DNA of 24,758 nt from a virus (lineage: Duplodnaviria; Heunggongvirae; Uroviricota; Caudoviricetes). Positions 5,802 through 24,758 of the stretch are shown piece by piece; within the stretch, counting starts at the first letter, position 1; each line of letters starts with the position of its first letter. The translations under genes were made by a program, and so were the position numbers. Location: IMG/VR virus record IMGVR_UViG_2698536536_000002; one strand, 5' to 3'. The notes beneath the pieces are model-generated. The model searched no databases, was not told where the DNA came from, and saw only the letters and a list, made by a program, of their open reading frames with translations.

Positions 5802-5879
5802 GCTGACCTCATTTCCCCTTAACGCCGGGGTAGCGGAACAAAAACCTGCTGCATAGTTATTAAAGTTGAACCCTGCCGT

Positions 5880-7274: not shown

Positions 7275-7345
7275 CTGACAATAGCCATATCGAATCGCTT
7301 CCGGCAACTCGTGAGTAAAAAGATTCGGTATCAGAAGAGGTGAGT

Positions 7346-8416
7346 ATGGCTAACGCCTGGCTCAGATTATGGCATGACATGCCAAATGACCCTAAGTGGC
7401 GAACAATTGCCAGGGTGTCAGGGCAGCCAATTGCAACAGTGATGGCAGTGTATATCCACCTCCTGGTGAGCGCGTCACGAAATGTCACGCGAGGTCACAT
7501 TGATGTCACGACAGAAGATTTGGCAAGTGCGCTCGACGTGACAGAAGAGGTAATTGATTCAATTTTGCAGACGATGCAGGGGCGGGTACTTGATGGTGAT
7601 TTAATCACTGGATGGGAAAAACGCCAGGTGCTGAAAGAGGACAACGGCAATATTTCGCAAACCGCAAAATCTCCGGCAGAGCGCAAGAGGGCGCAGCGAG
7701 AGAGGGAAAGAAAGCGGGAACAAAATGGCGATTGTCACGGCGAGTCACGAAATGTCACGCACATGTCACGACGAGTCACGACAGATAAAGATACAGATAA
7801 AGATACAGATCAAGAAGATCAAAACACTATGGTCCATGGCGTAAAAAACGCCACGAACCAGGCAGGGGATGTTCAGACCGTCACTCCTGGCCAGCCCGCA
7901 GGCACGACACCGGAAGCCGATTCAGCGTATGCGCTGAAAGCCGATTCGGGCGCTGTGCAGCAGGTGATGACCGCAAGGCAGGAGCAATCACACCAACTTC
8001 AGCAGCCTGAAGCCGATTCCGCCATTCAGCGGGAAGCCGATCGGGTAGTCCCGGAAAACACCGGGCAGCCTGTGGGACGAGTGGATTATCCTGATGTGTT
8101 CGAACAGGTCTGGCGGGAATACCCGTTGCGTGCCGGGGCAAACCCGAAGAAATCCGCTTTCAGTGCCTGGAAAGCCAGATTACGCGAGGGGGTGCCACCA
8201 GAGGCCATGCTGGATGGCGTGAGGCGTTACGCAAGATACCTTGCGGCTACCGGGAAAACGGGAACGGAATTTGTTCAGCGAGCGACGACGTTTTTTGGAC
8301 CGGACCGGCATTTTGAAAACCCCTGGCTGCTCCCGGTAAGCGGCACGAACAACCAGCGTTGTGTGAATCATATTTCTGAACCGGATAACGAAATTCCGCC
8401 GGGCTTCAGGGGGTAA
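7346..8416 (+). CDS. Replication initiation protein (YdaU-like, DUF1376-type N-terminal domain) with embedded origin iterons
   Basis: ATG at 7346 with GAGGTG RBS (the track's earlier start at 7340 is GTG). N-terminus (…WLRLWHDMPNDPKWRTIARVSG…) resembles phage replication-initiator N-domains. The gene contains two clusters of phased GTCAC repeats. Confidence 0.65.
   Translation: MANAWLRLWHDMPNDPKWRTIARVSGQPIATVMAVYIHLLVSASRNVTRGHIDVTTEDLASALDVTEEVIDSILQTMQGRVLDGDLITGWEKRQVLKEDNGNISQTAKSPAERKRAQRERERKREQNGDCHGESRNVTHMSRRVTTDKDTDKDTDQEDQNTMVHGVKNATNQAGDVQTVTPGQPAGTTPEADSAYALKADSGAVQQVMTARQEQSHQLQQPEADSAIQREADRVVPENTGQPVGRVDYPDVFEQVWREYPLRAGANPKKSAFSAWKARLREGVPPEAMLDGVRRYARYLAATGKTGTEFVQRATTFFGPDRHFENPWLLPVSGTNNQRCVNHISEPDNEIPPGFRG
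7474..7509. repeat. Iteron cluster 1: four GTCAC(G) repeats at ~10-bp phasing
   Basis: GTCAC at 7474, 7484, 7494 and 7505, read directly from the sequence. Confidence 0.6.
7734..7810. repeat. Iteron cluster 2: five GTCACG repeats at exactly 10-bp phasing, followed by an A-rich tandem repeat (putative ori)
   Basis: GTCAC at 7734, 7744, 7754, 7764 and 7774. Then GATAAAGATACA-GATAAAGATACA-GAT (7783-7810) and an A-rich stretch. Confidence 0.6.
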
Positions 8417-8456
8417 GTGTTAATTTCTGGTCATGAGGTAATTTTCAGGAGGGCTT

Positions 8457-8873
8457 GTGGCAAAAGTTTTTACACAAGAAGAGCGGGAAAAAATTAAAGG
8501 ACAGGTTCTTGAACTCGTACGCCAGAGTGGGCGCGAGACGTTACGACAACTGGAAGCTAAAACTGGGGCAACAAGATATCTGATGAGCGTTCTGGCCAGA
8601 GAGCTGGTTGCCAGTGGCGATGTATACAATTCTGGCTACGGGTTATTCCCGTCTGAACAGGCGCGTAAGGACTGGCAAAATGCCCGTAAAAAGCTCTCAA
8701 GGGCAAAGCTGAAGAAACCATCTGCGGTTGATCCGGACCTTATCTGGTCATTACCTGATGGAGAAATACGTCGTTACGACAGGCGTCATAATATGATTTG
8801 TACTGAGTGTCGTAAAAGCGAAGTTATGCAGCGCATATTGTCGTTTTATCAGGGGGATGTTCGGTTTTATTGA
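8457..8873 (+). CDS. Hypothetical protein (138 aa)
   Basis: GTG start at 8457 with CAGGAGGG RBS. No recognisable motif. Follows the replication gene on the same strand. Confidence 0.5.
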   Translation: MAKVFTQEEREKIKGQVLELVRQSGRETLRQLEAKTGATRYLMSVLARELVASGDVYNSGYGLFPSEQARKDWQNARKKLSRAKLKKPSAVDPDLIWSLPDGEIRRYDRRHNMICTECRKSEVMQRILSFYQGDVRFY

Positions 8874-9140
8874 AGTGACGAGATTAAAGTGCATTAGTTC
8901 AGATGCAAATTGACATTTTGTGGCACAGGGTAGAGCTAGCGTGGTTGTCCGCTTTGTGCCAACAGCGGACATTATGGAAGGTCAGAGTTAAAGATTAAAA
9001 TGGGATGCTGTGTGTTTTCTCCAGGTTTTGCTCTATACCTTTCGGGATACTCCACCGACAGAATACGAAAATCAACATTATCAACGGCTCGAAGTGTCTA
9101 GATTATCCATGGCAATTCATGGGAAATCCCATCCAACGGC

Positions 9141-10538
9141 TTATGCTTCATGTTGCTTTTTGAGATCGCTTCTAGCATAGCTCCACTCAATAATGTTGTC
9201 GGGTCGTTGCTGATCGAAAAGGATACGGGATTCAATACCATTACCTAAAAAGCTGGTATTCCCATCTACGTAAGAAGCTATCCCTTGTGAACCAACACGA
9301 AGAATATTTTCTAATGGCTGCTTTGTTCTTGCTGCATCGCTAAGGAGATATAAACCCGGGTACGTTTTGTTAGCACGGTGAAAAAAAAGTTCATTGTCAA
9401 AACACATGACGATGATTATTTGTCCCGACATGAGATCGGAGAGCATTTCAGTTGGCAGATGCAAACTCATAAATGGTCGAGACAAAGGGTCAAAGAATGA
9501 ATCATTTATATTCACAACAGGGCTTTTTATACCGAGACTATCCATCCATCCATTGAAGGCAACAAAGCCCATTTCAGAATCACGGTACATACCTAAGAAC
9601 AAACATTCATCAATAGTATCAATTGCCCAATTTTTTCCTCCGCGAATAATCTCCCACATTTTAACTAAGCGGTGGGTATAAAATTCAGACGGATGATCTA
9701 TCTCATTGATTTTAACTTTAGACTGATGAAAGTTGTCAAAGCCCTCGCCAGTATTAATCGCCTCCAGAACATTCATGCCACGAATGATTTGCCTTTTTAT
9801 GCGATTAAATTGCTTAACATCATTATCAGGCATATTGTTAATGAAGTTTTCTTCAAAGTGCGGACATTCTGAGATAACAGAAAATTCAGCAGCTTCATAA
9901 AGCTCATTATTCTTTTCACCTGTTTTAACTTCCACGAGCTGGAAGCCATCCAGTAGATTAAAGGTGACTAAATCTCCCACATGAACAAATGTGCTCATGT
10001 CAGAGACAATCGCTACGGAGTGTTTGTCCTGGTTGATAAGATCGGCTGCGACCATAGAATCAATTATGTTATCTTCTGATAGATTGTCATTGCTTGCATT
10101 AATAGGTAAACGCCGCAAACTAGAGTGTTCTTCATCAAGAATGCTCCAAATTATTGAGTCAATACAACGGCGAAGAATAAGAATTTCAAATTTTTTTAAA
10201 CTTATTTCATCAATACACTTTTCTTTATTTTCTTTATCCTTGTTTCGATGGTGCTCTTTTTTTTCAGTTTCCAATCTTTTTATATCTCTCAGCCGAATAA
10301 TAATCTCAAAAGATATGATTTTTTGTGAGTCTTTCCAATTTTTGAGACAGGTTTCATACTCTGCAAGAAAATCCTCATCATTGGAAGGTAGTTCTTGAAT
10401 TGGATTCCCTCCCCTTATCATTTTGGCAAGTGCATGCATTAAAGATACATAATGAGGTGATAAAATTGTCCAAAACTTCCTAAACGGTTTGTACTTTTCA
10501 AGAAAAGTTGACTCATCAGTATAATTCATCATAACCAA
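9141..10538 (-). CDS. Hypothetical 465-aa protein, possible PD-(D/E)xK-type nuclease; downstream partner of the AbiH-like gene
   Basis: Long AT-rich ORF with GAGG RBS. Central motif …AIVSDMSTFVHVGDLVTFNLLDGFQLVEVKTGEK… fits the D…(D/E)xK pattern of restriction-like nucleases (inference only). Co-oriented 83 bp downstream of the AbiH-like gene. Confidence 0.7.
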   Translation of the reverse strand: MVMMNYTDESTFLEKYKPFRKFWTILSPHYVSLMHALAKMIRGGNPIQELPSNDEDFLAEYETCLKNWKDSQKIISFEIIIRLRDIKRLETEKKEHHRNKDKENKEKCIDEISLKKFEILILRRCIDSIIWSILDEEHSSLRRLPINASNDNLSEDNIIDSMVAADLINQDKHSVAIVSDMSTFVHVGDLVTFNLLDGFQLVEVKTGEKNNELYEAAEFSVISECPHFEENFINNMPDNDVKQFNRIKRQIIRGMNVLEAINTGEGFDNFHQSKVKINEIDHPSEFYTHRLVKMWEIIRGGKNWAIDTIDECLFLGMYRDSEMGFVAFNGWMDSLGIKSPVVNINDSFFDPLSRPFMSLHLPTEMLSDLMSGQIIIVMCFDNELFFHRANKTYPGLYLLSDAARTKQPLENILRVGSQGIASYVDGNTSFLGNGIESRILFDQQRPDNIIEWSYARSDLKKQHEA

Positions 10539-10621
10539 ACCTCATTCCTCTTATCTATTTTCCTCAAGGTATAAAATACCAGCCTTTTTTACATAATTAT
10601 AGTTATAATATGAAGTCTCAT

Positions 10622-11491
10622 TCAGATATCTTCATACTGTACGTAAGAAATATTTGAGCCTCTGATACCATAATCTTCTAAACTGCCTGATTTTTTCTCA
10701 CCTCTATATAAAGCAACTATCCATCGAGCATTTTCTTGGATGCTTTTATTTATTTCAGTAAAGTATTCACCGTCAACTTCGGCGAGCGAGTGGCCTAAAA
10801 CGATGACCTCGTCCACATTTTTAAGCGATGAGAAAAAAACGTTTTCTTCTTTAATTATGTCTTCGCTGGGCTTGAATGTATTACCGAAGTATTCGTTTAT
10901 TCTGTCGTATGCCTCTGCTATTCTTGTATCTTGATCCGGTCCTATATATGGATTTAGTGACTTTTCCACCCTAAAACTATGACCAAGTATGAGATCGTCA
11001 TCGTAACTACAATTGCCGTGAATATGTATGATTTGCTCGTCTGGAACGGCATAGATCTGCTGCAAGGTATTTGTATAATTAAATGAAAAATAGATGCTTT
11101 CTCTTGGTATGGGCGGGATGTATTGCTTAGGATTGTAAGCATCGGCTATGTTAATCCCTTTAACCCAATCAGCGAATTGCTCCTTCAAACGAGCTGACAG
11201 CATTTGTGTGATTTTATTTACTTCATATTGGTAATCGTGATGATAAGCATCGCTCCAATCATCGGTATTGTATGAAGCCAAAAATATCTCACTGTTTTGA
11301 AGGATAAGCTCATAATCAATTTCACCTAAAGCATTTTCTAACTCATTCCACTCGTCCCCAGCAGGAATGTATTCTTCTATCGCGTCATATAGATCTTGGT
11401 CATTTTTTTCTACATACGACTTAAAGTGCTTGTATCCTGTTGGTAAGCCATGACGCATGTCAAATCCATTTCCTATTATGTAAAGCCTCAT
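10622..11491 (-). CDS. AbiH-like abortive-infection family protein
   Basis: From the ATG at 11491 (AAGGGA RBS) the product begins MRLYIIGNGFDMRHGLPTGYKHF…, which matches the N-terminal signature I associate with AbiH-family proteins. AT-rich codon usage. The track's longer ORF begins at 11542. Confidence 0.6.
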   Translation of the reverse strand: MRLYIIGNGFDMRHGLPTGYKHFKSYVEKNDQDLYDAIEEYIPAGDEWNELENALGEIDYELILQNSEIFLASYNTDDWSDAYHHDYQYEVNKITQMLSARLKEQFADWVKGINIADAYNPKQYIPPIPRESIYFSFNYTNTLQQIYAVPDEQIIHIHGNCSYDDDLILGHSFRVEKSLNPYIGPDQDTRIAEAYDRINEYFGNTFKPSEDIIKEENVFFSSLKNVDEVIVLGHSLAEVDGEYFTEINKSIQENARWIVALYRGEKKSGSLEDYGIRGSNISYVQYEDI

Positions 11492-11807
11492 TGTTTTTCC
11501 CTTAGTCGAATTGTATAAAAATACTAACATGGCCTGCTCCACGTTGACTACTATCCCCTCCTTTGAGTAATGCCTTCATCAGATGTAACAACATTTGCGA
11601 GCTTCCACAGTTCGCTCAAAGCGGACTAGAAGGTTAGCTTGCGTCGGACTTGGCGTATTTAAAGAAGTGCTGGTGGAGACTGGTTGTTGTGTTCCATTTC
11701 TACAGAACAAAATCACAGAAACTATACCCAATAGTTATATTGAATCAATGATGAGACAGCCTCATATTTATCAGGACTGGTGTACGTCCAATACAGGAGG
11801 TTGTCGT

Positions 11808-11897
11808 GCTGGTTCTCAAATGTGCGCTAGCTATTGCGGCTGTAATGGCAATTTATTGTCTTGCTGTTGTTCTTACGGATCGCCTTTCTGATTGATT
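11808..11897 (+). CDS. Candidate 29-aa hydrophobic peptide (type I toxin-like / degenerate hok-like)
   Basis: GTG at 11808 sits 7 nt after a perfect AGGAGG (11795-11800). Product MLVLKCALAIAAVMAIYCLAVVLTDRLSD is a single predicted TM helix. Below the ORF-track size cutoff. Confidence 0.3.
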
Positions 11898-12106
11898 TTA
11901 TATTGGCGAGGTGACGTGAGTTAAGTAGAATTGCTGCGGGTGCTTGAGGCTATCTGCCTCAGGCATGAACACCAAAGGCAGATAGAGAAAAGCCCCAGTT
12001 AACATTACGCGTCCTGCAAGACGCTTAACATTAATCTGAGGCCAATTTCATGCTAGACACATGTAGGTTAGCCTCTTACGTGCCGAAAGGCAAGGAGAAG
12101 CAGGCT

Positions 12107-12262
12107 ATGAAGCAGCAAAAGGCGATGTTAATCGCCCTGATCGTCATCTGTTTAACCGTCATAGTGACGGCACTGGTAACGAGGAAAGACCTCTGCGAGG
12201 TACGAATCCGAACCGGCCAGACGGAGGTCGCTGTCTTCACAGCTTACGAACCTGAGGAGTAA
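12107..12262 (+). CDS. hokD: Hok/Gef-family type I toxin (HokD/RelF-like)
   Basis: 51-aa product MKQQKAMLIALIVICLTVIVTALVTRKDLCEVRIRTGQTEVAVFTAYEPEE matches the remembered HokD/RelF sequence. AAGGAG RBS at 12092-12097. Flanked by a 10-bp-stem hairpin upstream (11950-11985) and a 9-bp hairpin (12270-12291) plus terminator downstream. Confidence 0.85.
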   Translation: MKQQKAMLIALIVICLTVIVTALVTRKDLCEVRIRTGQTEVAVFTAYEPEE

Positions 12263-12330
12263 GAGACCAGGCGAGGGAGAAATCCCTCGCCACCTCTGAT
12301 GTGTCAGGCATCCTCAATGCACCCGCACTT

Positions 12331-12354
12331 AACCCGCTTCGGCGGGTTTATTTT
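12331..12354 (+). terminator. Rho-independent terminator after hok
   Basis: AACCCGC-TTCG-GCGGGTT stem-loop followed by TATTTT. Confidence 0.5.
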
Positions 12355-12720
12355 ATCTGTAAATATTTTTATAAAAATAATGCCCACACACAGCATAAAA
12401 CAAAAAGTATCACAGATAAAAAAGGAGCGTAATGTGCAGATTTGTTGTTTTCCATATTTACTCACTTTAACATAATCAAAATTGATATGGTTGTTGTTTT
12501 GGTGGTTTCAAACGAGATGTTATGGTGATCTGGTAAAATTGCATAACATTAAAATTTAATTTATCTAATCGCTTTTAATAATAAGCGTTGTGTTTATCCC
12601 AACAATCTGTTGTTTGATTTTTATTCCATTAATGTAGGGGCTTTACACTGGAACCAGTTTATTTATACTTTATACGCCAGCCTGAACAACTGGCACCTGC
12701 TGCGCCAGCAGAGACAACCG

Positions 12721-12999
12721 ATGGCGCACGATACCAAATTACACAATTCTGATGATTCTGCCGTCTTTGCCAGCAGGTGCGGACGGCGTTTTCATGCATT
12801 CAAATCGGACTGGTTCCAGCATCCACCATGCACTGAAGAGCAGGCTGAATGGATAATTCAGTGTTACCGCAGGCGCGGATACGAGGTTAAAAAAGCCCTT
12901 AGCCTCGACTACCGTCACTGGATAATCTCAGTCAGATTGCCTTACTCCGAACGCCCACCGCGTCCGTCCCGTACATTCCAGCAACGCATCTGGAGGTAA
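12721..12999 (+). CDS. Hypothetical protein (about 92 aa; start uncertain)
   Basis: ORF ends 1 nt before the GTG start of the downstream DUF968 gene, with that gene's GGAGG RBS inside its 3' end. The ATG at 12721 lacks a clear RBS; the track ORF begins at a TTG at 12610. Occupies the position of rem in Qin. Confidence 0.4.
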   Translation: MAHDTKLHNSDDSAVFASRCGRRFHAFKSDWFQHPPCTEEQAEWIIQCYRRRGYEVKKALSLDYRHWIISVRLPYSERPPRPSRTFQQRIWR

Positions 13000-13000
13000 C

Positions 13001-14050
13001 GTGCGGGTATTACTTCGACCTGTTCTGGTACCGGAACTCGGGCTGGTGGTCGTTAAGCCGGGCCGTGAATCCATGCCGGTATTCCACAATACCCGGGTAC
13101 TGGTGGAGCCGGAACCGAAAAGCATGCGTAATCTGCCGTCCGGGGTCGTTCCTGCCGTTCGCCAGCCGCTGGTGGAAGACAAAACATTGCTGCCGTTTTT
13201 CAGTAACGCACGGGTAATTCGTGCTGCTGGTGGTGCTGGTGCATTGTCTGACTGGCTGTTGCGCCATATTAAATCCTGCCAGTGGCCACACGGCGATTAT
13301 CATCACAGCGAAACCGTTATTCACCGTTATGGTACCGGCGCAATGGTGTTGTGCTGGCACTGCGACAACCAGCTGCGTGACCAGACATCCGAATCACTCG
13401 AGCAACTTGCTCATCAAAATCTGTCAGCATGGATGATTGACGTCATCGGTCACGCAATAAGCGGTACGCAGGAGCGTGAATTATCTCTGGCTGAATTATC
13501 CTGGTGGGCGGTCTGCAATCAGGTGGTGGATGCACTACCTGAGGCTGTATCGCGTCGTTCGCTGGGATTACCAGCGGAAAAAATCTGCTCGGTGTACCGC
13601 GAAAGCGACATCGTACCGGGAGAGCAGACCGCCACCAGCATACTGAAACAGCGCACAAAAAATCTTGCGCCGCTGCCTCACGCCCACCAGCAACAGAACC
13701 CACCACAGGAAAAGACGGTGGTCAGCATTGCCGTTGATCCTGAGTCTCCGGAATCTTTCATGAAACGACCTAAACGTCGCCGCTGGGTTAACGAGAAATA
13801 CAAACGCTGGGTGAAGACACAGCCGTGTGCGTGTTGTGGTAAGCCAGCCGACGATCCCCATCACCTGATTGGTCATGGTCAGGGCGGAATGGGGACAAAA
13901 TCTCACGATATTTTCACGCTACCGCTGTGTCGGGAGCATCACAACGAGCTTCATGCGGATCCTCTGGCGTTCGAAGAAAAGCATGGTTCTCAGGTTGATT
14001 TAATTTTTCGTTTTCTTGATCACGCCTTTGCAACTGGCGTGCTTGGGTAA
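13001..14050 (+). CDS. ydfU: DUF968-family protein with C-terminal HNH-like motif (YdfU-like)
   Basis: 349 aa, GTG start with GGAGG RBS. C-terminal …PCACCGKPADDPHHLIGHGQGGMGTKSHDIFTLPLCREHHNELH… is characteristic of the DUF968/HNH-like family. Same length and position as Qin ydfU, upstream of Q. Confidence 0.75.
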   Translation: MRVLLRPVLVPELGLVVVKPGRESMPVFHNTRVLVEPEPKSMRNLPSGVVPAVRQPLVEDKTLLPFFSNARVIRAAGGAGALSDWLLRHIKSCQWPHGDYHHSETVIHRYGTGAMVLCWHCDNQLRDQTSESLEQLAHQNLSAWMIDVIGHAISGTQERELSLAELSWWAVCNQVVDALPEAVSRRSLGLPAEKICSVYRESDIVPGEQTATSILKQRTKNLAPLPHAHQQQNPPQEKTVVSIAVDPESPESFMKRPKRRRWVNEKYKRWVKTQPCACCGKPADDPHHLIGHGQGGMGTKSHDIFTLPLCREHHNELHADPLAFEEKHGSQVDLIFRFLDHAFATGVLG

Positions 14051-14062
14051 AAGAGGTGACTG

Positions 14063-14419
14063 ATGCTCATAGATTTGGTTTTACCTTACCCGCCGACGGT
14101 GAACACTTACTGGCGACGCCGTGGCAGCACATATTTTATCTCGGAGGAGGGAAAGCGTTATCGCCGGGCTGTGGCGCTTATTGTTCGCCAGCAGCGGCTG
14201 AAATTAAGCCTGTCCGGAAGGCTGGCGATAAAGGTGATTGCAGAGCCACCGGATAAGCGTCGTCGCGACCTGGACAATATCCTGAAAGCACCGCTGGATG
14301 CGCTGACGCATGCGGGAGTGTTAATGGACGATGAGCAGTTTGATGAAATCAATATCGTTCGTGGTCAGCCAGTATCTGGCGGACGTCTGGGGGTGAAGAT
14401 TTACCCCATAATGCATTAA
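14063..14419 (+). CDS. rusA: Holliday-junction resolvase RusA
   Basis: 118 aa with conserved …PPDKRRRDLDNILKAPLDALTHAGVLMDDEQ… (RusA catalytic Asp cluster). AAGAGGTGA RBS. Confidence 0.85.
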   Translation: MLIDLVLPYPPTVNTYWRRRGSTYFISEEGKRYRRAVALIVRQQRLKLSLSGRLAIKVIAEPPDKRRRDLDNILKAPLDALTHAGVLMDDEQFDEINIVRGQPVSGGRLGVKIYPIMH

Positions 14420-14433
14420 GAGCAGGTCAAAAA

Positions 14434-15255
14434 ATGAAACTGGAAGATTTACCGAAATACTACTCCCCAAAATCCCCTGGCCTGACCGATGCATCGGCCT
14501 CAACGTCAAAAGATGCGCTGAGTATCACTGATGTGATGGCCGCGCAGGGCATGACACAGAATCGGGCTGAGATGGGTTTTTCTGCGTTCCTGGGGAAAAT
14601 GGGCATCAGTATGAATGACAGGGCGCGGGCAACAGAATTACTGGCAGATTATGCACTCAGTCGGTGCGATCGTGTGGCGGCGTTGAGAAAACTTCCGGCA
14701 GAAATAAAACCGGTAGTGATGCGCATTATGGCTTCGTACGCTTTTGAGGATTATGCCCGCAGCGCAGCGAGTAAAAAGCAGTGCCCTTGTTGCTATGGGG
14801 AAAAATTTATTGAAAGCATAGTTTTTACAAACAAGGTCCAGTATCCGGATGGTAAGCCGCCGGTATGGGCAAAGTGTACGAAAGGTGTGTATCCGTCTTA
14901 CTGGGAAGAATGGAAAAAAGTCAGGGAGGTGGTAAAAGTTGCCTGTCCGGAGTGTGGCGGAAAGGGTGAGGTTTCCACCGCCTGTAAGGATTGCCGTGGG
15001 CGTGGTGTCGCCATTCATCGTGAAGAGTCGGTAAAACGTGGTATGCCTGTTATCAGAGACTGCCAGCGTTGTGGTGGTCGTGGCTATGAAAGACTACCAT
15101 CAACGGAGGCATTTAATGCTATATGCGAGGTGACAAACCAGATAACACGCGCGTCATGGGAAAAAACAGTTAAGAAATTCTATGATGCGCTGGTGACCCG
15201 GTTTGATATTGAAGAAGCATGGGCTGAGCGGCAGTTAAAAAAGGTAACTAGGTAA
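14434..15255 (+). CDS. Late-gene antitermination protein Q
   Basis: 273 aa with a Cys-rich zinc-binding region (CPECGGKGE…CKDCRGRG…CQRCGGRGYE). Located immediately before a promoter/terminator/tRNA/lysis arrangement, as for lambdoid Q. Confidence 0.8.
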   Translation: MKLEDLPKYYSPKSPGLTDASASTSKDALSITDVMAAQGMTQNRAEMGFSAFLGKMGISMNDRARATELLADYALSRCDRVAALRKLPAEIKPVVMRIMASYAFEDYARSAASKKQCPCCYGEKFIESIVFTNKVQYPDGKPPVWAKCTKGVYPSYWEEWKKVREVVKVACPECGGKGEVSTACKDCRGRGVAIHREESVKRGMPVIRDCQRCGGRGYERLPSTEAFNAICEVTNQITRASWEKTVKKFYDALVTRFDIEEAWAERQLKKVTR

Positions 15256-15326
15256 CAAGGTTGATTTTTCCGGAATCTGTGGTAAATTCGTCATAATGAT
15301 GGGCTTTTTATGCCTGACGTTAGAAG

Positions 15327-15350
15327 AGTTTCTACAACCCGCCGCCGAGC
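15327..15350 (+). terminator. Intrinsic terminator downstream of Q (tR'-like target of Q antitermination)
   Basis: ACCCGC-CGCCGA-GCGGGT hairpin followed by TTTTTTATT. The late promoter and qut site are expected within 15256-15326 but could not be defined confidently. Confidence 0.5.
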
Positions 15351-15387
15351 GGGTTTTTTATTGCGGAATTAATTACGGACCGTTATT

Positions 15388-15463
15388 ATTCTGCTCCCGG
15401 CCCTTTAGCTCAGTGGTGAGAGCGAGCGACTCATAATCGCCAGGTCGCTGGTTCAAATCCAGC
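15388..15463 (+). tRNA. tRNA with CAU anticodon (tRNA-Ile2/ileZ-like, or Met)
   Basis: 76-nt cloverleaf drawn by hand: acceptor GGCCCTT/AAGGGCC, D-stem GCTC/GAGC, anticodon loop CTCATAA, T-stem GCTGG/CCAGC, T-loop TTCAAAT, 3' ACCA. Confidence 0.85.
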
Positions 15464-15564
15464 AAGGGCCACCATCACAAACCGCCATTAGCTTATCAGG
15501 AAGAGCAGACGACACGATAACAGGGTTGTTGGTGCGGGGGCGGGTCCCCGATGGCGGTCCATTA

Positions 15565-15641
15565 TCGGTATTCAGCGTTGTTAGCTCAGCCGGACAGAGC
15601 AATTGCCTTCTAAGCAATCGGTCACTGGTTCGAATCCAGTA
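15565..15641 (+). tRNA. tRNA-Arg (UCU anticodon; argN/argO/argU-like)
   Basis: 77-nt cloverleaf: acceptor GCGTTGT/ACAGCGC (one G-U), anticodon stem ATTGC/GCAAT with loop CTTCTAA, T-stem ACTGG/CCAGT, T-loop TTCGAAT, 3' GCCA. Confidence 0.85.
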
Positions 15642-15761
15642 CAGCGCGCCATATTCATTCTTCCAGATTCCTTCCGGCAGAGCCTTATACTGGAATATAC
15701 CTGGCTCAGGATATTGTTGAAAACATAATATGTTTGTCAAAAATAAAAGTTCTGTTAAGTA

Positions 15762-16115
15762 TTGATTGAGTGTTTGTTATACGGTCTAATGGTTTTTTCA
15801 GCATTAAATATTTATCATTCATATGGTGTGGGTAGAGTGAATATTGATGAGGCGTCGGGGTGTTTCATCCTTAGGCAGCGTATTGATATAGTCAATGCAG
15901 CACGAGCAAAGGCCTTCAGCCGTTTGACAGTTTTGTTCTGTGCTCCTGATCGTCTTTCGGGAAGAGACGTTATTATTCTGAATAGTGATGCTATACAGAG
16001 GGTTTGCGATGAGTTCATGGTTGCTAATTCAGAATTATTTGCTCTTGTTCAGGAGTACAACAGAATAGCCAGGACCTGTGGTATGGATGAACTTCGGATT
16101 ACTCATCTGGGGTAG
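15762..16115 (+). CDS. Hypothetical protein (117 aa; start uncertain) at the post-tRNA moron site
   Basis: Open frame in an AT-rich segment directly downstream of the tRNAs. The track start is TTG and no convincing RBS was found. Confidence 0.3.
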   Translation: MIECLLYGLMVFSALNIYHSYGVGRVNIDEASGCFILRQRIDIVNAARAKAFSRLTVLFCAPDRLSGRDVIILNSDAIQRVCDEFMVANSELFALVQEYNRIARTCGMDELRITHLG

Positions 16116-16645
16116 ATACATATCTGGATTATCACCTGTTACGGTAAAAAGTGATTGCTTACTGTTTTTGTGAATGGCATTGCAGCAGCCGGATAATGTC
16201 AGTGCTGGCTGACGGTGTGCTGGTGGCGGGTGTGGTGGTTGCTTTCCCGTTGCTGAAAAAGAAAACGCCAGACTGTTAGCCGGGTATCAGTTAGCGGGAG
16301 AAATTTTTAAATACTTCACAATTCAGGCGGTTGACTGTTCTCTGGTTTGCGGGGAGTTTGTTAAAAGAAACTGGCATGGTGAATCCCCCTGTGCGGAGGG
16401 GCAATCAGCGAGTAGGTATATGGGATAATCGCGGATTCAGGTGCTGGTACTGAATTCACCGGGAGGCACCCGGCACCATGCACTTAAATAGATTCTCTCC
16501 ACATTATGGATATTCTTTCAGAATATCCCACGCAGACTTTGTGTAAATGTTAACAAATGTGCGTTTTATTTGATCTGATTCGCTGTTTGAGCGTCCAAAA
16601 CAACGGTATATATAATCCTTTACTATATGACATATGTGAGAAAAA

Positions 16646-17074
16646 ATGGGTTTTCGTAGCGCATCAATTCTTACGTTGATTATTAGTGGGATTATTATCG
16701 GGTGCACTGATGCTGTATCGACAAATTATCATGACCGTACATCATCTTACTCCGATAAAACAATAGAGACACAGTATGTGAGTTCATCTGAACGTACTTC
16801 TGATGTTAGTGAGGATATCCGTCTGTATGCCCATCAAATCAAGAGCGCCATCGAAAAACAGTTCGGGGATGCGAGTAAGTATTCAGGAAAAGAGTGTACA
16901 CTGAGAATGCATATGGCCCCGAATGGCCTTCTACTGGAGGTTAAAAGAGAAAGTGGAGACCTCGATTTATGTCGTGAAGCGATGAATGCGATAAAGAATG
17001 CTGATATACCTGCCCCCCCTTCGCCGGAAGTATATAAAGTATTTCAAAATGGGGTGCTGGATTTTAAACCCTGA
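16646..17074 (+). CDS. Lipoprotein with TolA C-terminal (domain III)-like domain
   Basis: Signal peptide plus lipobox (…LIISGIIIGC). C-terminal …YAHQIKSAIEKQFGDASKYSGKECTLRMHMAPNGLLLEVKRESGDLDLCREAMNAIKNADIPAPPSPEVYKVFQNGVLDFKP closely parallels the remembered C-terminus of E. coli TolA, including both cysteines and the terminal LDFKP. Candidate promoter TTGAGC-18-TATAAT at 16587-16616. Confidence 0.75.
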   Translation: MGFRSASILTLIISGIIIGCTDAVSTNYHDRTSSYSDKTIETQYVSSSERTSDVSEDIRLYAHQIKSAIEKQFGDASKYSGKECTLRMHMAPNGLLLEVKRESGDLDLCREAMNAIKNADIPAPPSPEVYKVFQNGVLDFKP

Positions 17075-17224
17075 TATTTATTGTTTTGTAATAAACGGTT
17101 TCGGCTTAGGTTTGTTCTGACACAACTACGGCACTGAGCTAAATTTAGCGGATAGTCAGCTCTGAGCCAGTGGCGGACGTAACAACTACTATTGCTGAGA
17201 TTTTAATGGATTGAGGAGCAAGAA

Positions 17225-17620
17225 GTGGGATTAAAGAAAATCGTTATGTTGACTTTTTGGGGCGGTTTTGTTGCGGGATGCACACCTTTACACCCTTCAG
17301 ATTGCCACAAAACTACTGCTACAGGTAGTTGCAGTTCAGGACGCTGGGATGATCAGGATGAATGGGGGGCGCAAGCGCGGGGAATCAGAGCTGCAATTAA
17401 TGCCAAACTTGATGAGCCGCATAACTGGAAAGGGAAAATATGCAGGTTGCATATGGAATTCTCTCAGGATGGCACGGCGTTAAAAATATCTACCAGTAAC
17501 GGTGATAAAGCCTATTGCGAAGCGATAAAGTCCGCAGCTCATAAAGCCAAATTTCCGGCCTTCAACAATCCGGAAGTCTACAGAGATTTTCAGAAATCTG
17601 GCTTTGACATGCGAGGTTAG
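17225..17620 (+). CDS. Lipoprotein, diverged paralogue of the TolA domain III-like lipoprotein
   Basis: GTG start with GAGGAG RBS. Signal peptide plus lipobox (…FVAGC). C-terminal domain keeps the same Cys…Cys spacing and PEVY motif (…ICRLHMEFSQDGTALKISTSNGDKAYCEAIKSAAHKAKFPAFNNPEVYRDFQKSGFDMR). Confidence 0.65.
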   Translation: MGLKKIVMLTFWGGFVAGCTPLHPSDCHKTTATGSCSSGRWDDQDEWGAQARGIRAAINAKLDEPHNWKGKICRLHMEFSQDGTALKISTSNGDKAYCEAIKSAAHKAKFPAFNNPEVYRDFQKSGFDMRG

Positions 17621-17871
17621 CTCTTCAATTACTATATCTCATTCATAGCAAACTGACAGATTTGATGATGTTCTATATACGAAACCTGTGATGTCAAGTC
17701 TGAGCTAATACAAATAAACATAATATCAGAGAAATACATTTTATTAGCTCGCTACGGCGAGCTTTTTATATTGCATCGTCTCCAGCATATATATCAATTA
17801 AGGCTCTGATTGATGTGTCTGGAAGCCTACACATAATAACTATGCCATCCGTTCCGTGCGGAGGTGAGGCT

Positions 17872-18087
17872 ATGAAATCCATGGACAAAATTTCAACAGG
17901 CATTGCCTACGGCACCTCCGCAGGCAGTGCTGGCTACTGGTTTTTACAGCTGCTCGATAAAGTCACGCCCTCACAGTGGGCAGCAATAGGTGTGCTGGGT
18001 AGCCTGGTATTTGGCCTGCTGACGTACCTGACAAACCTTTATTTCAAGATTAAAGAAGACAAGCGTAAGGCTGCACGGGGAGAGTAA
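17872..18087 (+). CDS. Class II holin (phage 21 S-type pinholin-like) with dual-start motif
   Basis: 71 aa, [71 protein letters not shown], with two TM segments and a charged C-terminus. Met-Lys-Ser-Met dual start and GGAGGTGAGG RBS. Closely resembles my recollection of S21. Confidence 0.85.
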
Positions 18088-18091
18088 TTCA

Positions 18092-18436
18092 ATGACTCAA
18101 AAATATGAACTGATTGTGAAAGGGATCCGCAATTTTGAGAATAAAGTTACGGTAACTTTAGCGTTACGGGACAAAGAACGCTTTGACGGTGAAATTTTTG
18201 ACCTGGACATCTCGCTGGACCGTGTTGAAGGTGCCGCGCTGGAGTTTTATGAGGCAGCAGCCAGAAGGAGCATCAGACAGGTCTTCCTGGATGTTGCTGC
18301 CGGGTTATGTGAAGGGGATGAGCTGTCGCCGGAAAAGCGCCCCATAATTTTAGAGGCGCAGAATGTGTGGATAACCTACAAAGGAAAGCTACCGGGAAGA
18401 ATTACTGGTTCTCTGAAGACTCCGCCGAAATGGTAA
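18092..18436 (+). CDS. ydfR: YdfR-like protein (DUF1327-type) between holin and endolysin
   Basis: 114 aa beginning MTQKYELIVKGIRNFENKVTVTLALRDKERFDGEIFDLD…. Same position as ydfR between essQ and rrrQ in Qin. Confidence 0.65.
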   Translation: MTQKYELIVKGIRNFENKVTVTLALRDKERFDGEIFDLDISLDRVEGAALEFYEAAARRSIRQVFLDVAAGLCEGDELSPEKRPIILEAQNVWITYKGKLPGRITGSLKTPPKW

Positions 18437-18674
18437 TTTCACCAGCATATTTTTCTTCCAGTAATACCGCCAGCCACTTGAAAGAATTTTGTTGTTGCTG
18501 GGACCATTTGGGGTTGAGTGATTCAAGCTGGAGCGATGCCAGTGTTGGTTGCATTTGTTCCTTGGGAATTGAGAATGCCAGATATGAAAATGCGACAGTA
18601 AGGGCATTTACATCATCCCGAAGCTTGGAAATGCAGTCGAGCAACTCCTGTAGAGAAATGGTGCTATTGTCCAT
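18402..18674 (-). CDS. Hypothetical 90-aa protein encoded antisense within the lysis cassette
   Basis: ATG at 18674 with GAGAGG RBS about 8 nt upstream. Product looks protein-like (MDNSTISLQELLDCISKLRDDVNALTVAFSYLAFSIPKEQMQPTLASLQLESLNPKW…). The plus-strand ORF over the same DNA is Ser/Cys-rich and looks spurious. Confidence 0.35.
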   Translation of the reverse strand: MDNSTISLQELLDCISKLRDDVNALTVAFSYLAFSIPKEQMQPTLASLQLESLNPKWSQQQQNSFKWLAVLLEEKYAGEITISAESSENQ

Positions 18675-18779
18675 AAACAATCCTCTCTATTGTATTTAAC
18701 TATTCCTTGCCTGATTCAACAGGCCGGGACAGATAAACATATCCAGGGTTCAGAAACCGATAAACCCTGATAAATATCC

Positions 18780-19313
18780 ATGAACGTAAAAATCAGATAC
18801 GGCCTGTCGGCTGCCGTTCTGGCACTGATTGCCGTCGGTGCGCCTGCGCCTGATATTCTCGACCAGTTTCTGAATGAAAAAGAAGGTAACCACACAACGG
18901 CATACCGCGATGGTTCCGGCATCTGGACCATCTGTCGGGGTGCCACGGTGGTGGATGGAAAACCCGTTTTTCCCGGTATGAAACTGTCGAAGGAAAAATG
19001 CGACCAGGTTAACGCCATTGAACGGGATAAGGCGCTGGCATGGGTGGAGCGCAATATTAAAGTGCCACTGACCGAACCACAGAAAGCGGGTATAGCGTCA
19101 TTTTGTCCCTATAACATTGGCCCAGGTAAGTGTTTTCCGTCGACATTTTATAAGCGGCTGAATGCTGGTGATCGAAAAGGCGCCTGCGAGGCGATTCGCT
19201 GGTGGATTAAGGATGGTGGCAGAGACTGCCGTATTCGTTCCAATAGCTGCTTCGGGCAAGTTTCGCGTCGGGACCAAGAAAGTGTGCTGGCGTGCTGGGG
19301 GATAGACCAGTGA
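18780..19313 (+). CDS. SAR endolysin (T4-lysozyme-like muramidase, GH24)
   Basis: 177 aa. N-terminal weakly hydrophobic Gly/Ala-rich signal-anchor-release segment ([16 protein letters not shown]). Catalytic E…D…T context (…[22 protein letters not shown]…). Follows a pinholin, as in phage 21. Confidence 0.85.
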
Positions 19314-19318
19314 ATAAC

Positions 19319-19831
19319 ATGTTTGCTAATGCTTGGTTGAAAGTTGCCACGGTTTCGGCTCTCCTCATTGCCTCATTTGTTGCAGGGAGTGTGTGGACGG
19401 AACGAGCATGGGAAAAGAAATGGGCGGATCGTAATAGTGAAGAATCCTCTCAGGCTGTGAACGCTCAGATAGCTGCTCGTATGATTGAACAAGGGCGAGT
19501 GATCGCTCGTGATGAGGCTGTTAAAAATGCACAAGAACAGGCTGCAAAAGCGGCTGCGAATGTTGCTGGCCTGTCTGCCACTGTTAACCAGCTGCGCACC
19601 GAAGCAACAAAACTTACCGTCCGCTTGGACGCTGCAAAGCACACCTCAGGTCTTGCCGTTGCCGTCGGAAGCAAAACAACCGCCACCAACGCCGCGATGC
19701 TTGCCGACATGCTCGGAAGTATTGCAGAAGAAGCTAGATACTATGCTGGGCGAGCTGATGAAAGTTACTTGGCTGGAATGACATGTGAACACATTTACGG
19801 CTCAGTGAGGGACTCAAGTAGTGTTAAATAG
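19319..19831 (+). CDS. Inner-membrane spanin Rz-like (i-spanin)
   Basis: N-terminal TM segment ([21 protein letters not shown]) followed by an Ala/Gln-rich coiled-coil periplasmic domain. Starts 6 nt after the endolysin stop. Contains an embedded +1-frame lipoprotein ORF. Confidence 0.65.
19560..19781 (+). CDS. Outer-membrane spanin Rz1-like (o-spanin) nested in Rz
   Basis: Embedded +1-frame ORF with lipoprotein signal and lipobox ([12 protein letters not shown]) and a Pro-rich mature region (…[15 protein letters not shown]…), the classic Rz1 architecture. Confidence 0.65.
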
Positions 19832-20019
19832 CTGGTATGATGATGTTGAGAAGGCGGCACAGCAGGAGCTGTAATCGACGAGTGCTAATCTAGCACAATT
19901 GAGTTCACAAATTGTCTACTTTTGCTATATTGCAACCGATGCCAACAGCCTTTTTTGAGCAAAAATCATAAATGTTATCGTGTTGGCAGTTTTTTTCTTT
20001 GACGACACGGAATGATTTT

Positions 20020-20442
20020 ATGTCAGAAGTAGCTGTTGAACTTGAAGAGGATTCTTGGCCTGATTTTTTCCCGGTTGGAGTACCGCCGAAATCAGCCGTC
20101 CCTGCTGAGGGCGAGTTTTTCCGTTTGGTAAGGTCTAATCCACCAACCCCTGCATGTTTCCTCTCTACACATGAAGAGTATCCGCAGCGGCACAAAAAGT
20201 ATCGTGGGGAAGCACTTCAGTGTGTCTATGGAACATCATTCTTTTCAGAATCGCGCGGGGCTACGGATGCAAAAGCTAAATTTCCTGCAGCTCTTGGTCA
20301 TCGACTCGTTGCTAGTGGTCAGATCACCCCCGTTTTCGGAGTAATGAAAAAAACATTTGCCGATCCAGCGCACTACACAATTTGGCTTAAGCGTAATTGT
20401 GCTATTCATGAACATTTTCACTGTATAGGAGAAGGCGTATGA
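20020..20442 (+). CDS. Hypothetical 140-aa protein (first gene of unknown two-gene cargo operon)
   Basis: ATG at 20020. Stop overlaps the start of the next gene (ATGA at 20439-20442). No recognised domain. C-terminal HEHFHC cluster could bind metal (speculative). Confidence 0.5.
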   Translation: MSEVAVELEEDSWPDFFPVGVPPKSAVPAEGEFFRLVRSNPPTPACFLSTHEEYPQRHKKYRGEALQCVYGTSFFSESRGATDAKAKFPAALGHRLVASGQITPVFGVMKKTFADPAHYTIWLKRNCAIHEHFHCIGEGV

Positions 20443-21731
20443 GTAACGTTTTTCTACCTAATACAATGATGGGCACTCTATGTTACAAAAGAGTTTATGA
20501 GTTCTTCGAAGAGCCTCGCTTCTTTTCAGTTGAAAATGAAGTTAGTACACTTTTTATCGTTTACTGGATTGGTGAGGATGATGAATGTGATAGTTGGTTT
20601 ATCATACCAATTTCTCCAGGGCGATTAGAGTTGATTGAAAGAAAAAGAATATGTATCCGTGATGCTTTGATTAATCAGGAGCAAAACTTTTTCTATGAAG
20701 CCCATATACCATACGATCGTACAGGCAAAGTGACTTGGCTGAGTAAAAACTTGGTTGATATATTTGAAATACCTTTGCCTGTTTCTGAACTATATATAAG
20801 TTCGGTAGTTCCAGTAATGCCAAATGGTAAACTGGGCGAGGCTATTACTTACTCAACTCATGAGATCCATTTAGAAAAAAGCTCAAAGAAAAGTGCAAAA
20901 AATTTGGTTTTAAGTCATGTGTCAAACGTATGCGACAGATTCAGCGATCTTTATGACAGAATGCTGGAGATGGCAAAGTGCAAAGATAAATTACGTCCTG
21001 TCGATGCGCGGCCTGGTTCCTTTATCATTTCTTTTAAAGCTGAGAAATTACATTCCTTTGAAGACACTTTTAAAGAATTAAGCAGGCTGATAGAACTTAG
21101 AGCTGATATTATTCCTTTTGTTTTCGAAAAGGGTATTGATGTTCCAGCTTTGACAGATCTCTTACAATCCATAGTTGAAACCGGAACGAATATGGAACTC
21201 AAAAGCAACCAGACAGGTGAATTAGCTTTTGTTATTACAAAAGCTGGTGCTGAGTTCTATTTAAAAAAATTATCACGTCTTTCTACCTCATTGGTTGGAG
21301 GGCATCAAATACCTCAAGCAGATGTCCTCGAGACAGTTTATAAATTAGTGGAAATTGTTTGGAGTGGCGAACCACTTACTCCTATTAATACTGGTTTGCA
21401 AGATAGACATATCTACTATTATAAGCATGCAGCTAAAGTTTTGGGATTACTTGATAGCTTTGGTAATGTCACAACGTCTGGTCAACAACTCGTACAAAGT
21501 GATGAGATGACTAGACATAAAATTGCAGCGAGAAAATTTGAAGTGAGTCATGTGGGATGGGCTTGGATAAATTGGGCCAGTGTTGAACATTTATCCCAAA
21601 TTGATCCTGACAGCGCTTTAGACTTTCTATTGGAGCAATGCCACTCTTTAAGTCGTGATACTATTGAACGACGTGCTACAACTATTAAACACTGGTGCCG
21701 TGAATTGAAAAATTATTATACACCTCTGTAA
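20439..21731 (+). CDS. Hypothetical 430-aa protein (second gene of unknown two-gene cargo operon)
   Basis: Long AT-rich ORF translationally coupled to the upstream gene and followed by an intrinsic terminator. No recognisable catalytic motif by eye. Confidence 0.7.
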   Translation: MSNVFLPNTMMGTLCYKRVYEFFEEPRFFSVENEVSTLFIVYWIGEDDECDSWFIIPISPGRLELIERKRICIRDALINQEQNFFYEAHIPYDRTGKVTWLSKNLVDIFEIPLPVSELYISSVVPVMPNGKLGEAITYSTHEIHLEKSSKKSAKNLVLSHVSNVCDRFSDLYDRMLEMAKCKDKLRPVDARPGSFIISFKAEKLHSFEDTFKELSRLIELRADIIPFVFEKGIDVPALTDLLQSIVETGTNMELKSNQTGELAFVITKAGAEFYLKKLSRLSTSLVGGHQIPQADVLETVYKLVEIVWSGEPLTPINTGLQDRHIYYYKHAAKVLGLLDSFGNVTTSGQQLVQSDEMTRHKIAARKFEVSHVGWAWINWASVEHLSQIDPDSALDFLLEQCHSLSRDTIERRATTIKHWCRELKNYYTPL

Positions 21732-21756
21732 AGGATAATTTTCGTAGTTAACAATG

Positions 21757-21784
21757 AACCACTGACGTCTGTCGGTGGTTTTTT
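21757..21784 (+). terminator. Rho-independent terminator after the two-gene cargo operon
   Basis: AACCACTGAC-GTCT-GTCGGTGGTT hairpin (10-bp stem, one G-U) followed by TTTTTT. Confidence 0.5.
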
Positions 21785-22045
21785 AATAGATAATTTCCCA
21801 CTTATCCACTTGATTTTTGATGGGTCCTCCAAGTGGGGGGCCTGCCACGGGGCGGGAGCGTCGCGGAAAAAGGCTAGTTTTTGCATTTCCATGGTGGCGG
21901 CAGCATGTTTGGTAATTTATTGATAATTAAAAGTTATTTCTCTTTTCAGCTGTACAATATTTTTTTCTCCCTGTCATTAGACTAGTTTGCAATTAATTGA
22001 AATATATAAATAAACCTGATTTTCACCTGCCAGATGGAGTTGCTT

Positions 22046-22573
22046 ATGTCAAATGTGAGCGGGATCGGTGATGCTTATTACTGGAGTGTTTTTAAAATCG
22101 CCGAGGCCTTTGGGCTTCACCGGGACACAGTAAAAAAACGGCTCCTCGCGGCCAACACTCCTGTGGCTGCGACTGTCAGGGGGAACCCCGTTTACGCCCT
22201 GCAGCATGTCGGGCCTGCCCTGTTTAGTGTGAAGCATGAGGCAGCAGACTCTGTTCATGATCCATCCCGTATGGAGCCGAAAGAGAGAAAGGACTGGTAC
22301 CAGTCGGAAAATGAAAGGATCAAGTTGGAAAAGGAGCAGCGAAAACTCATCCCAGTTGATGAAGTAGTCATCGTCTATTCGTCCATGAGAAAGGCTGTCG
22401 TCCAGGTTCTGGAGACAATTCCGGATGTTCTTGAACGCGATTGCGCCCTGACTCCTCAGGCCGTTGGCGTTGTACAGCAGGCCATTGATGACCTGCGATA
22501 CACTCTTCAGGAAAAATCCTACGAGGCTTGTGCTGCTGAATTAATTCCTGATGAGGAAGGAGAGAGTCTCTAG
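22046..22573 (+). CDS. Terminase small subunit (Nu1-like)
   Basis: ATG at 22046 preceded by GGAG. N-terminal winged-HTH-like segment (…YYWSVFKIAEAFGLHRDTVKKRL…) and acidic C-terminus. Immediately upstream of the large terminase gene. Confidence 0.7.
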   Translation: MSNVSGIGDAYYWSVFKIAEAFGLHRDTVKKRLLAANTPVAATVRGNPVYALQHVGPALFSVKHEAADSVHDPSRMEPKERKDWYQSENERIKLEKEQRKLIPVDEVVIVYSSMRKAVVQVLETIPDVLERDCALTPQAVGVVQQAIDDLRYTLQEKSYEACAAELIPDEEGESL

Positions 22574-22581
22574 GAGGAATA

Positions 22582-23994
22582 ATGGGTTTTTCATCAGCCC
22601 GAAATTTGGGAAGGGACATATCGGCAGGATTTTCCCCACCACGTCGCATGCCGATTTCGGAGGCTGTTAAAAAATTCATGCGTGTTCCCAAGGGGGCTGG
22701 TAACTCGGTGCCATGGGATCCTGAACTGACACCCTACATCATTGAGCCCATGAACTGCCTGGCATCGCGTGAATACGATGCGGTGATTTTTGTTGGTCCT
22801 GCGCGAACAGGGAAGACCATTGGTCTGATCGATGGATGGATTGTCTATACCATCGTTTGCGATCCTTCGGACATGCTCGTTGTGCAGATGACCGAAGATA
22901 AGGCCCGCGAGCATTCAAAAAAGCGCCTCGACAGAACGTTCAGAAGCAGTGCGGCGGTAAAGAAAAGAATGAGTCCACGTCGTAATGACAATAATGTCCA
23001 TGATAAGACGTTCAGGGATGGCTCGTTCCTTAAAATTGGTTGGCCCTCGGTCAACATTATGTCGTCGTCGGATTACCGGTTTGTCGCCTTAACCGATTAC
23101 GACCGTTTTCCGGAGAATATCGACAGCGAGGGTGATGGTTTCTCCCTGGCCTCAAAACGTACCACCACATTTATGTCCGCCGGGATGACTCTGGTGGAGA
23201 GCTCGCCGGGACGTGACATCTGCGACAGCAAATGGCGACGTAAGTCGCCTCATGAAGCGCCACCGACGACTGGTATTCTTTCCCTTTACAATCGTGGTGA
23301 CCGCCGCCGCTGGTACTGGCCATGTCCGCACTGCGGTGAATATTTTCAGCCAGCCATGGATGCCATGACCGGCTACCGTAATGAACCGGATCCCTTTAAA
23401 GCCAGTGAGGCGGCGTATCTACTTTGCCCGCACTGCAGCGGCATTATCACTGCGGAGAAAAAGCGTGAGCTCAATAGTGCAGGAGTCTGGTTGCGTGAAG
23501 GTCAGGTCATTGATTGTAACGGCAACGTTTCCGGTGAACCGCGCCGCTCCCGTATCGCCAGTTTCTGGATGGAAGGGCCAGCTGCTGCGTATCAGACCTG
23601 GGCGCAACTGGTTTACAAATTACTGACTGCAGAACAGGAGTATGAAGCGACAGGAAGTGAAGAAACACTCAGGGCGGTTATCAACACCGACTGGGGATTA
23701 CCTTATCTTCCCCGCGCCAGCATGGAGCAACGAAAAAGTGAACTGCTTGAGCAGCGGGCAGAGCCAGTTCCTTCCCGCAGTGTGCCAGATGGCGTTAATT
23801 TTCTTGTGGCGACAGTGGATGTGCAGGCGGGACGTCATCGCCGTTTTGTGGTTCAGGTAACGGGCTATGGCAGCCGTGGCGAACGCTGGATTATTGATCG
23901 TTACAACATCACGCAGTCATTGCGCGGTGACAGCGACGGGGAGAGCCAGCGAATTGATCCGGCCAGCTACCGTTCCTGGCGAGCGTTGTCGTGA
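22582..23994 (+). pseudogene. Terminase large subunit (lambda gpA-like), C-terminally truncated
   Basis: AGGAGG RBS. Walker-A-like VGPARTGKT and a Cys/His cluster (…WYWPCPHCGEYF…LCPHCSGII…) parallel lambda gpA. The ORF stops after 470 aa, against about 640 for gpA, exactly where host-like transporter sequence begins. Confidence 0.75.
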
Positions 23995-24758
23995 TGGTCT
24001 TTGCTATCTGGTTACGTATGAATCTGAAAGAAAGCCCGGTCTTTGAGAAGGTTAATGACAGCAACCAACCCACAGCAAAACCTGCACCTGCTGGTAGCAT
24101 GTTCCAGAGCAAATCCTTCTGGCTGGCAACAGGGCTGCGTTTTGGTCAGGCGGGTAACTCCGGGTTAATTCAGACTTTCCTTGCAGGCTATTTAGTGCAG
24201 ACGTTATTGTTTAACAAAGCAATTCCAACAGATGCATTGATGATTAGTTCGATTCTCGGCTTTATGACCATTCCGTTCCTTGGTTGGTTATCCGATAAAA
24301 TTGGTCGCCGGATCCCGTATATTATTATGAATACCTCCGCGATTGTGCTGGCATGGCCAATGCTTTCTATCATTGTAGATAAAAGCTATGCCCCGAGCAC
24401 CATTATGGTTGCACTGATTGTGATTCATAACTGTGCGGTGCTGGGATTATTTGCTCTGGAAAACATTACCATGGCAGAAATGTTCGGCTGTAAAAACCGC
24501 TTTACCCGGATGGCTATTTCTAAAGAAATTGGTGGTCTTATCGCTTCCGGTTTTGGTCCTATCCTGGCGGGTATTTTCTGCACCATGACGGAATCCTGGT
24601 ATCCGATCGCCATTATGATCATGGCATATTCAGTGATTGGTTTAATCTCTGCGCTGAAAATGCCAGAGGTGAAAGACCGTGATTTAAGTGCGCTGGAAGA
24701 CGCTGCGGAAGATCAACCGCGTGTTGTAAGAGCTGCGCAACCTTCCAGAAGTCTGTAA
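23994..24758 (+). pseudogene. C-terminal half of an MFS transporter (host gene fragment; ydfJ-like)
   Basis: 255-aa frame encoding about six TM helices, starting in what looks like the central cytoplasmic loop of an MFS protein (…RMNLKESPVFEKV…). No N-terminal half in the window. Stop codon at the window end. I recall the Qin integration locus of K-12 as a disrupted MFS gene (ydfJ). Confidence 0.6.

Follow-up and report, generated by a model that had tools for sequence, protein, structure and literature searches.

A Qin-type prophage of Escherichia coli joined within its large terminase gene to the host gene ydfJ

Gene content and chromosomal location

The stretch of DNA analysed here (the window, 24,758 nucleotides) is a Qin-type lambdoid prophage of Escherichia coli located in the usual target of these elements, ydfJ (Table 1). 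Its left part encodes the integrase, an excisionase, an exonuclease, dicB/DicF, the repressor region, replication genes, AbiH and hok/sok, while the right part carries the Q antiterminator, tRNAs, the lysis cassette, a two-gene moron, a DUF1441 gene and the 5′ two-thirds of the large terminase gene. The set that characterizes the Qin type (dicB/DicF, DUF968, hok/sok, Q and the lysis cassette) is present, the DicF and sok RNAs being typical of such prophages. At the position of the tRNA with anticodon CAT, the related prophage of strain PM7 has a gene annotated as tRNA-Ile. The window begins one base past the integrase stop codon and ends on the stop codon of ydfJ; its ends were apparently set at gene boundaries. 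The exact 470-amino-acid protein encoded by its terminase open reading frame occurs in a single public record, CXYB01000001.1, a 1.2-Mb contig of the E. coli assembly GCA_001268725.1.

Table 1. Features of the prophage remnant and of the adjoining ydfJ fragment, with window coordinates
Feature	Position	Strand	Basis or remark
Qin-type lambdoid prophage remnant	1..23969	+	collinear with the full-length ydfJ prophage of PM7
Tyrosine integrase, 431 aa, attL end	2..1297	-	Pfam Arm-DNA-bind_2 and Phage_integrase
DicF	4757-4808	-	Rfam
465-aa protein and AbiH (306 aa)	9141-10538, 10622-11542	-	between replication genes and hok/sok
sok antitoxin RNA	11938-12112	+	Rfam
tRNA-Met(CAT)	15399-15474	+	noncoding RNA gene of the prophage
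tRNA-Arg(TCT)	15575-15651	+	noncoding RNA gene of the prophage
STnc100 sRNA	16345-16535	+	noncoding RNA gene of the prophage
Two-gene moron, 156 aa and 430 aa, overlapping	19972-20442, 20439-21731	+	between Rz-like gene and DUF1441
DUF1441 protein, small-terminase position, seemingly intact	22034..22573	+	Pfam PF07278, E=1.7e-44
GpA-type large terminase, 5′ 1388 nt (codons 1-463 of 699)	22582..23969	+	identity to the WCHEC050613 gene; Pfam
Deletion junction	23968..23969	.	TA dinucleotide common to both parental sequences (2-bp microhomology)
Out-of-frame tail of the terminase ORF, 7 codons (RSWRALS) and TGA	23970..23994	+	translation compared with the intact homologue
ydfJ 3′ fragment (MHS-family MFS transporter), residues 194-455 and stop	23970..24758	+	identity to reconstructed YdfJ

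The right side of the window is ydfJ with the correct downstream synteny: beyond the junction the contig continues with ydfI, ydfZ, rspR, ydfG and dcp, the normal neighbours of that gene. On the left side, the identical integrases of other genomes suggest integration at TTATGGATTTC beside rspB: the same protein adjoins rspB in all six places listed of the 25 contigs covered, which belong to genomes other than the present one. The attL of the window strain, together with an 84-nt 5′ remnant of ydfJ, is placed just outside the window, and its predicted sequence is …GAATTTATGGATTTC….

The organization of the occupied site can be followed in PM7, where the two prophage ends share the sequence given above as an 11-bp att core and codons 1-28 of ydfJ (MTIEKHERSTKDLVKAAVSGWLGTALEF) lie in the interval between the integrase gene and rspB. 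Joining this 28-codon remnant to the ydfJ′ portion at the other end restores a YdfJ protein of 455 amino acids. The unoccupied rspB-ydfJ site reconstructed in this way, with intact attB and ydfJ as in strains without the prophage, has matches of 100% identity among complete E. coli genomes, 2011 of 5426 of which contain at least 80% of it in one place. In agreement with this, Qin integration is described as occurring at the 5′ end of ydfJ, with removal of 28 N-terminal codons and the promoter (PMC6379469). In the window strain ydfJ would already have been split at codon 28 by site-specific integration before any deletion took place.

Two groups of cargo genes lie elsewhere in the window. AbiH, an abortive-infection gene (Pfam E=8e-69; also called AbiH by PADLOC), stands beside a gene for a 465-amino-acid protein without Pfam or PADLOC match, and the same pair is present in PM7. 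The larger protein of the moron contains DUF6575 and has a weak match to DUF7226; in PADLOC the moron pair has weak hits to PD-T4-10_A (E=1e-5) and PD-T4-10_B (E=2.8e-4). This DUF6575 pair is absent from the otherwise near-identical prophage of PM7 and is present in only 8 of the 5426 complete E. coli genomes. Its similarities suggest that it is possibly a divergent anti-phage system.

The junction between terminase and ydfJ

The gene homologous to the window terminase in WCHEC050613 is intact, with 2100 nt encoding 699 amino acids. A base-by-base ungapped comparison with it gave identity at 1388 of 1388 positions up to 23969, where the match ends. The original prediction that the terminase stops at about 470 residues holds for the open reading frame, but the homologous part comprises only 463 residues; the full length of around 640 residues that had been expected has to be replaced by the 699 of the close intact homologue. 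In the 470-amino-acid protein the GpA_ATPase domain (PF05876) is complete, spanning residues 40-303 and profile positions 2-247 of 247 (E=2.1e-81), whereas GpA_nuclease (PF20454) is cut off, with residues 325-469 matching profile positions 1-125 of 294; in the intact homologue the nuclease domain extends over residues 325-643 and the whole profile (1-294 of 294). The last terminase codon kept is that of Tyr463, with TAT changed to TAC. The seven codons that follow are ydfJ DNA read in the wrong frame up to a TGA stop at 23992-23994. The 236 C-terminal amino acids, most of the nuclease domain, are missing. Ending as it does at residue 463, with only 125 of the 294 positions of the nuclease profile, the window terminase is a fragment and not a short natural variant. 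The DUF1441 gene that precedes it also precedes an intact terminase gene at two other loci (L001 and L002), and the gene that follows is ydfJ′ instead of the portal gene. Because its C-terminal end and most of the nuclease domain are gone, the truncated protein would be unable to process cos or to dock on proheads.

On the other side of the junction, the 791 nt from 23968 to 24758 are 100% identical to the 3′ end of ydfJ in many E. coli, and the encoded frame is identical in 262 of 262 amino acids to residues 194-455 of both the reconstructed 455-amino-acid YdfJ and the PM7 protein. The downstream gene had been described as the C-terminal half of an MFS transporter beginning just after the terminase. 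It does correspond to an incomplete YdfJ, but the frame is open from position 23970 (Pro194) to the natural stop at 24756-24758, and the GTG at 23991, where the mechanically called frame starts, is the native Val201 codon and not a true start. Pfam assigns MFS_1 and Sugar_tr to this frame, the latter only with its rear part (profile positions 239-449 of 452). Residues 1-193 are absent at the junction; in related strains 28 codons are accounted for at the attL side, and the other 165 codons are deleted. The fragment has no start codon of its own, and no sigma-70-like promoter site was found for it between 21700 and 24758. Any transcription of the fragment would come by read-through from the phage late operon. 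The fragment is predicted to be a dead remnant.

The join itself is seamless and can be placed between 23967 and 23970, inside the interval 23940-24010 where it had been anticipated. Megablast matches to terminase genes end at 23972 and those to ydfJ start at 23968; the former limit arises because a 1-nt gap is opened, and true terminase identity stops at 23969. Base-level comparison and megablast agree in that ydfJ identity begins at 23968. Hence the two parental sequences overlap by the dinucleotide TA. With the join marked by a slash, the terminase parent reads …CCAGCTA/TCCGGAAG… and the ydfJ parent …GGCGTATA/CCGTTCCTGG…, while the window reads …CCAGCTACCGTTCCTGG… across the join. In the ydfJ frame the native ATA has become a hybrid codon, CTA (23967-23969). 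The two mechanically called frames, 22582..23994 (470 amino acids) and 23991..24758 (255 amino acids), are read in different phases and overlap by 4 nt. The terminase stop codon TGA (23992-23994) shares bases with GTG (Val201) and ATG (Met202), two codons of the ydfJ frame. This chance TGATG arrangement resembles translational-coupling sites and could allow low-level reinitiation of a 254-amino-acid half-transporter.

Distribution and origin of the junction

Sequences covering at least 80% of the window were found in 27 genomes of other strains, in which the matches run from the integrase gene to position 23972 and belong to lambdoid prophages integrated at ydfJ. A full-length relative of the prophage is found in PM7 (NZ_CP073996.1). 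Local BLAST gave 99.87% identity between PM7 and window positions 1-18343 and 98.65% for positions 21822-23972, after which the match jumps to ydfJ; the lysis-proximal moron region (19308-21821) differs. The gene order in PM7 is rspB, integrase, excisionase, exonuclease, dicB, repressor region, replication genes, AbiH, hokD and DUF968, followed by RusA, Q, tRNAs, lysis genes, DUF1441, the 699-amino-acid terminase, portal and a ClpP-capsid fusion, and then by tail genes, J, Lom, tail fibre, tfaQ, ydfJ′ (1284 nt, lacking the N-terminus) and ydfI. It is collinear with the window from integrase to terminase and carries, in the same order and orientation, the structural genes that the window lacks. 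Compared base by base, PM7 has 24,601 bp that the window lacks. The ancestral deletion was perhaps some 1.2-1.3 kb shorter, because the corresponding stretch of PM7 contains an extra IS3 (an estimate based on the IS3 transposase coding sequence). The missing stretch runs from the 3′ end of the terminase gene through the genes for portal, capsid, tail and tail fibre to attR and another 495 nt of ydfJ. Portal, head and tail genes, already reported as missing from the window, are also absent from the 10 kb downstream of it.

The junction appears to be private to one assembly, that of the source contig. A megablast search with positions 22500-24758 detected it in none of the 5426 complete E. coli genomes, where the two halves never occur joined, and a 30-mer spanning the join had no match in the scanned contigs of GTDB species-representative genomes or in the scanned JGI metagenome contigs. 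Loss of head and tail genes at this locus is on the other hand recurrent, as indicated by LR-45 and E. coli C. The ydfJ prophage of LR-45 (NZ_AP027532.1, locus 7121-13878) has a different, independent head-tail deletion, in which the DUF6575 pair directly precedes a tail-fibre gene lacking its N-terminus, tfaQ, pinQ, ydfK and the attR-proximal ydfJ′ (1284 nt), so that attR is retained there; in E. coli C the right end at ydfJ resembles that of Qin.

We propose, with a probability that we put at roughly 0.88, that integration was followed by a single deletion of about 24.6 kb, which left a terminase-ydfJ scar and a defective prophage. In the model, a Qin-type lambdoid prophage would have entered the 5′ end of ydfJ by site-specific integration, an arrangement found in many E. 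coli. Afterwards a single, simple deletion would have run from inside the terminase gene through attR, taking 495 nt (165 more codons) of ydfJ and joining nucleotide 1388 of terminase to codon 193/194 of ydfJ. The comparisons with the terminase homologue, with ydfJ and with PM7 all support the original proposal that a deletion of the structural genes fused the remnant to a host transporter gene.

Several features of the join bear on how it arose. Around it (23700-24300), a search for repeats, IS ends and hairpins returned two short direct repeats at chance level and no inverted repeats; as neither IS elements nor meaningful repeats flank the junction, an IS- or repeat-mediated deletion was rejected. 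The 11-bp att core, allowing one mismatch, has no match near the junction, and a site-specific origin was discarded on that ground. Taking into account that only 2 bp are shared and that IS, att core and scar are all lacking, the most likely mechanism would be a RecA-independent illegitimate recombination of the microhomology or end-joining type. The deletion is probably recent, judging from zero substitutions in terminase relative to WCHEC050613 and 100% identity of ydfJ to many E. coli.

Three other origins of the junction have been weighed. A junction seen in one draft assembly only might reflect a misjoin by the assembler, which would have linked terminase to ydfJ and left out some 24 kb that are really present. 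Against this, the two sides share 2 bp and no repeat that could collapse, they have the order and orientation expected of a simple deletion within the locus of this prophage, and the 1.2-Mb contig goes on with the correct host genes; an assembly artefact is consequently held to be unlikely. Activity of Int/Xis on attL/attR and a secondary att-like site, or a shorter element that naturally ends here, would fit the seemingly intact integrase, the excisionase-family gene and the loss of attR with the deletion. Such an event would imply that this integrase recombines sequences resembling GCTATCCGG and GTATACCGT, but besides the lack of an att core near the join, the left breakpoint splits a conserved terminase codon and the right one is set apart from att, 495 nt into ydfJ′, which makes this origin highly improbable.

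A deliberate laboratory deletion, namely a recombineering or genome-reduction scar, has in its favour the uniqueness of the junction and nothing else. Every base at the join derives from one parent or the other, FRT, loxP, marker and primer scars are lacking, and the end points are intragenic instead of lying at designed boundaries, so that its probability is close to nil.

Consequences and relation to known prophages

Absence of the portal, capsid and tail genes and of attR, together with the truncated terminase, amounts to a loss of the parts needed for particle formation and excision. With attR lost, the element should be unable to excise by Int/Xis, and it is predicted to be capable neither of cutting cos, packaging DNA and building particles nor of leaving the chromosome. 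The repressor region, the replication genes, the Q antiterminator and the lysis cassette (holin, lysozyme and Rz) are kept, as are AbiH, hok/sok, DicF/dicB and the DUF6575 pair as cargo. The prophage is hence to be scored as defective, although immunity, lysis and defence cargo may persist in it. Its 470-amino-acid "terminase" and 254/255-amino-acid "MFS transporter" are pseudogene fragments of one scar and should not be counted as functional genes.

A retained role of the scar can be imagined, in which the truncated terminase, reduced to its ATPase domain and the N-terminus that faces the small subunit and expressed from the late operon, would act as a dominant-negative packaging decoy against superinfecting Qin/lambda-like phages, or in which the half-transporter would be translated by coupling. 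If the decoy reading were true, the truncated terminase would have a defence function. The perfect identity of the fragment to intact genes fits a recent deletion equally well without selection, and a role of this kind is regarded as very unlikely. The significance of the junction beyond annotation is small: it adds one more independent case in which a prophage at the ydfJ hotspot of E. coli has lost its head-tail module, and its uniqueness could make it usable as a lineage-specific PCR marker.

The terminase has the Pfam architecture of lambda gpA, GpA_ATPase followed by GpA_nuclease, but within this family the intact homologue has 699 residues and the window copy ends at residue 463. Full-length lambdoid prophages integrated at ydfJ, represented by PM7 and by the terminase of WCHEC050613, are near-identical to the window in the DNA they share. 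They differ in possessing the 699-amino-acid terminase, portal, ClpP-capsid fusion, tail, tape measure, J, tail fibre and attR, all of which the window lacks.

The cryptic prophage Qin (Kim) of K-12 has the same integration target, ydfJ, likewise split after 28 codons; its integrase gene lies beside rspB, as is probable for the window strain, and it too lacks head and tail genes. Both elements share dicB, DicF, ydfU/DUF968, hokD/sok, an essD-type holin and an rrrQ-type lysozyme. K-12 Qin keeps attR and an end with tail-fibre gene, pinQ and ydfK, in line with the similar right end in E. coli C. Unlike in K-12 Qin, the deletion in the window starts inside the large terminase gene and takes attR and 165 more codons of ydfJ. 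The ydfJ gene of K-12 lacks only its first 28 codons (PMC6379469).

The closest general parallel is provided by the "grounded" or defective prophages of Ramisetty and Sudhakari (2019, PMC6379469), which have become anchored in the chromosome by losing an att site and structural genes but keep regulatory, lysis and cargo genes; the same authors cite Bobay et al. (2014) on the advantages that prophages confer. The element described here would persist as a grounded cryptic prophage in that sense. It does not differ from them in kind, and the phenomenon is textbook prophage decay; what sets this strain apart is only the exact position of the end points, now mapped precisely.
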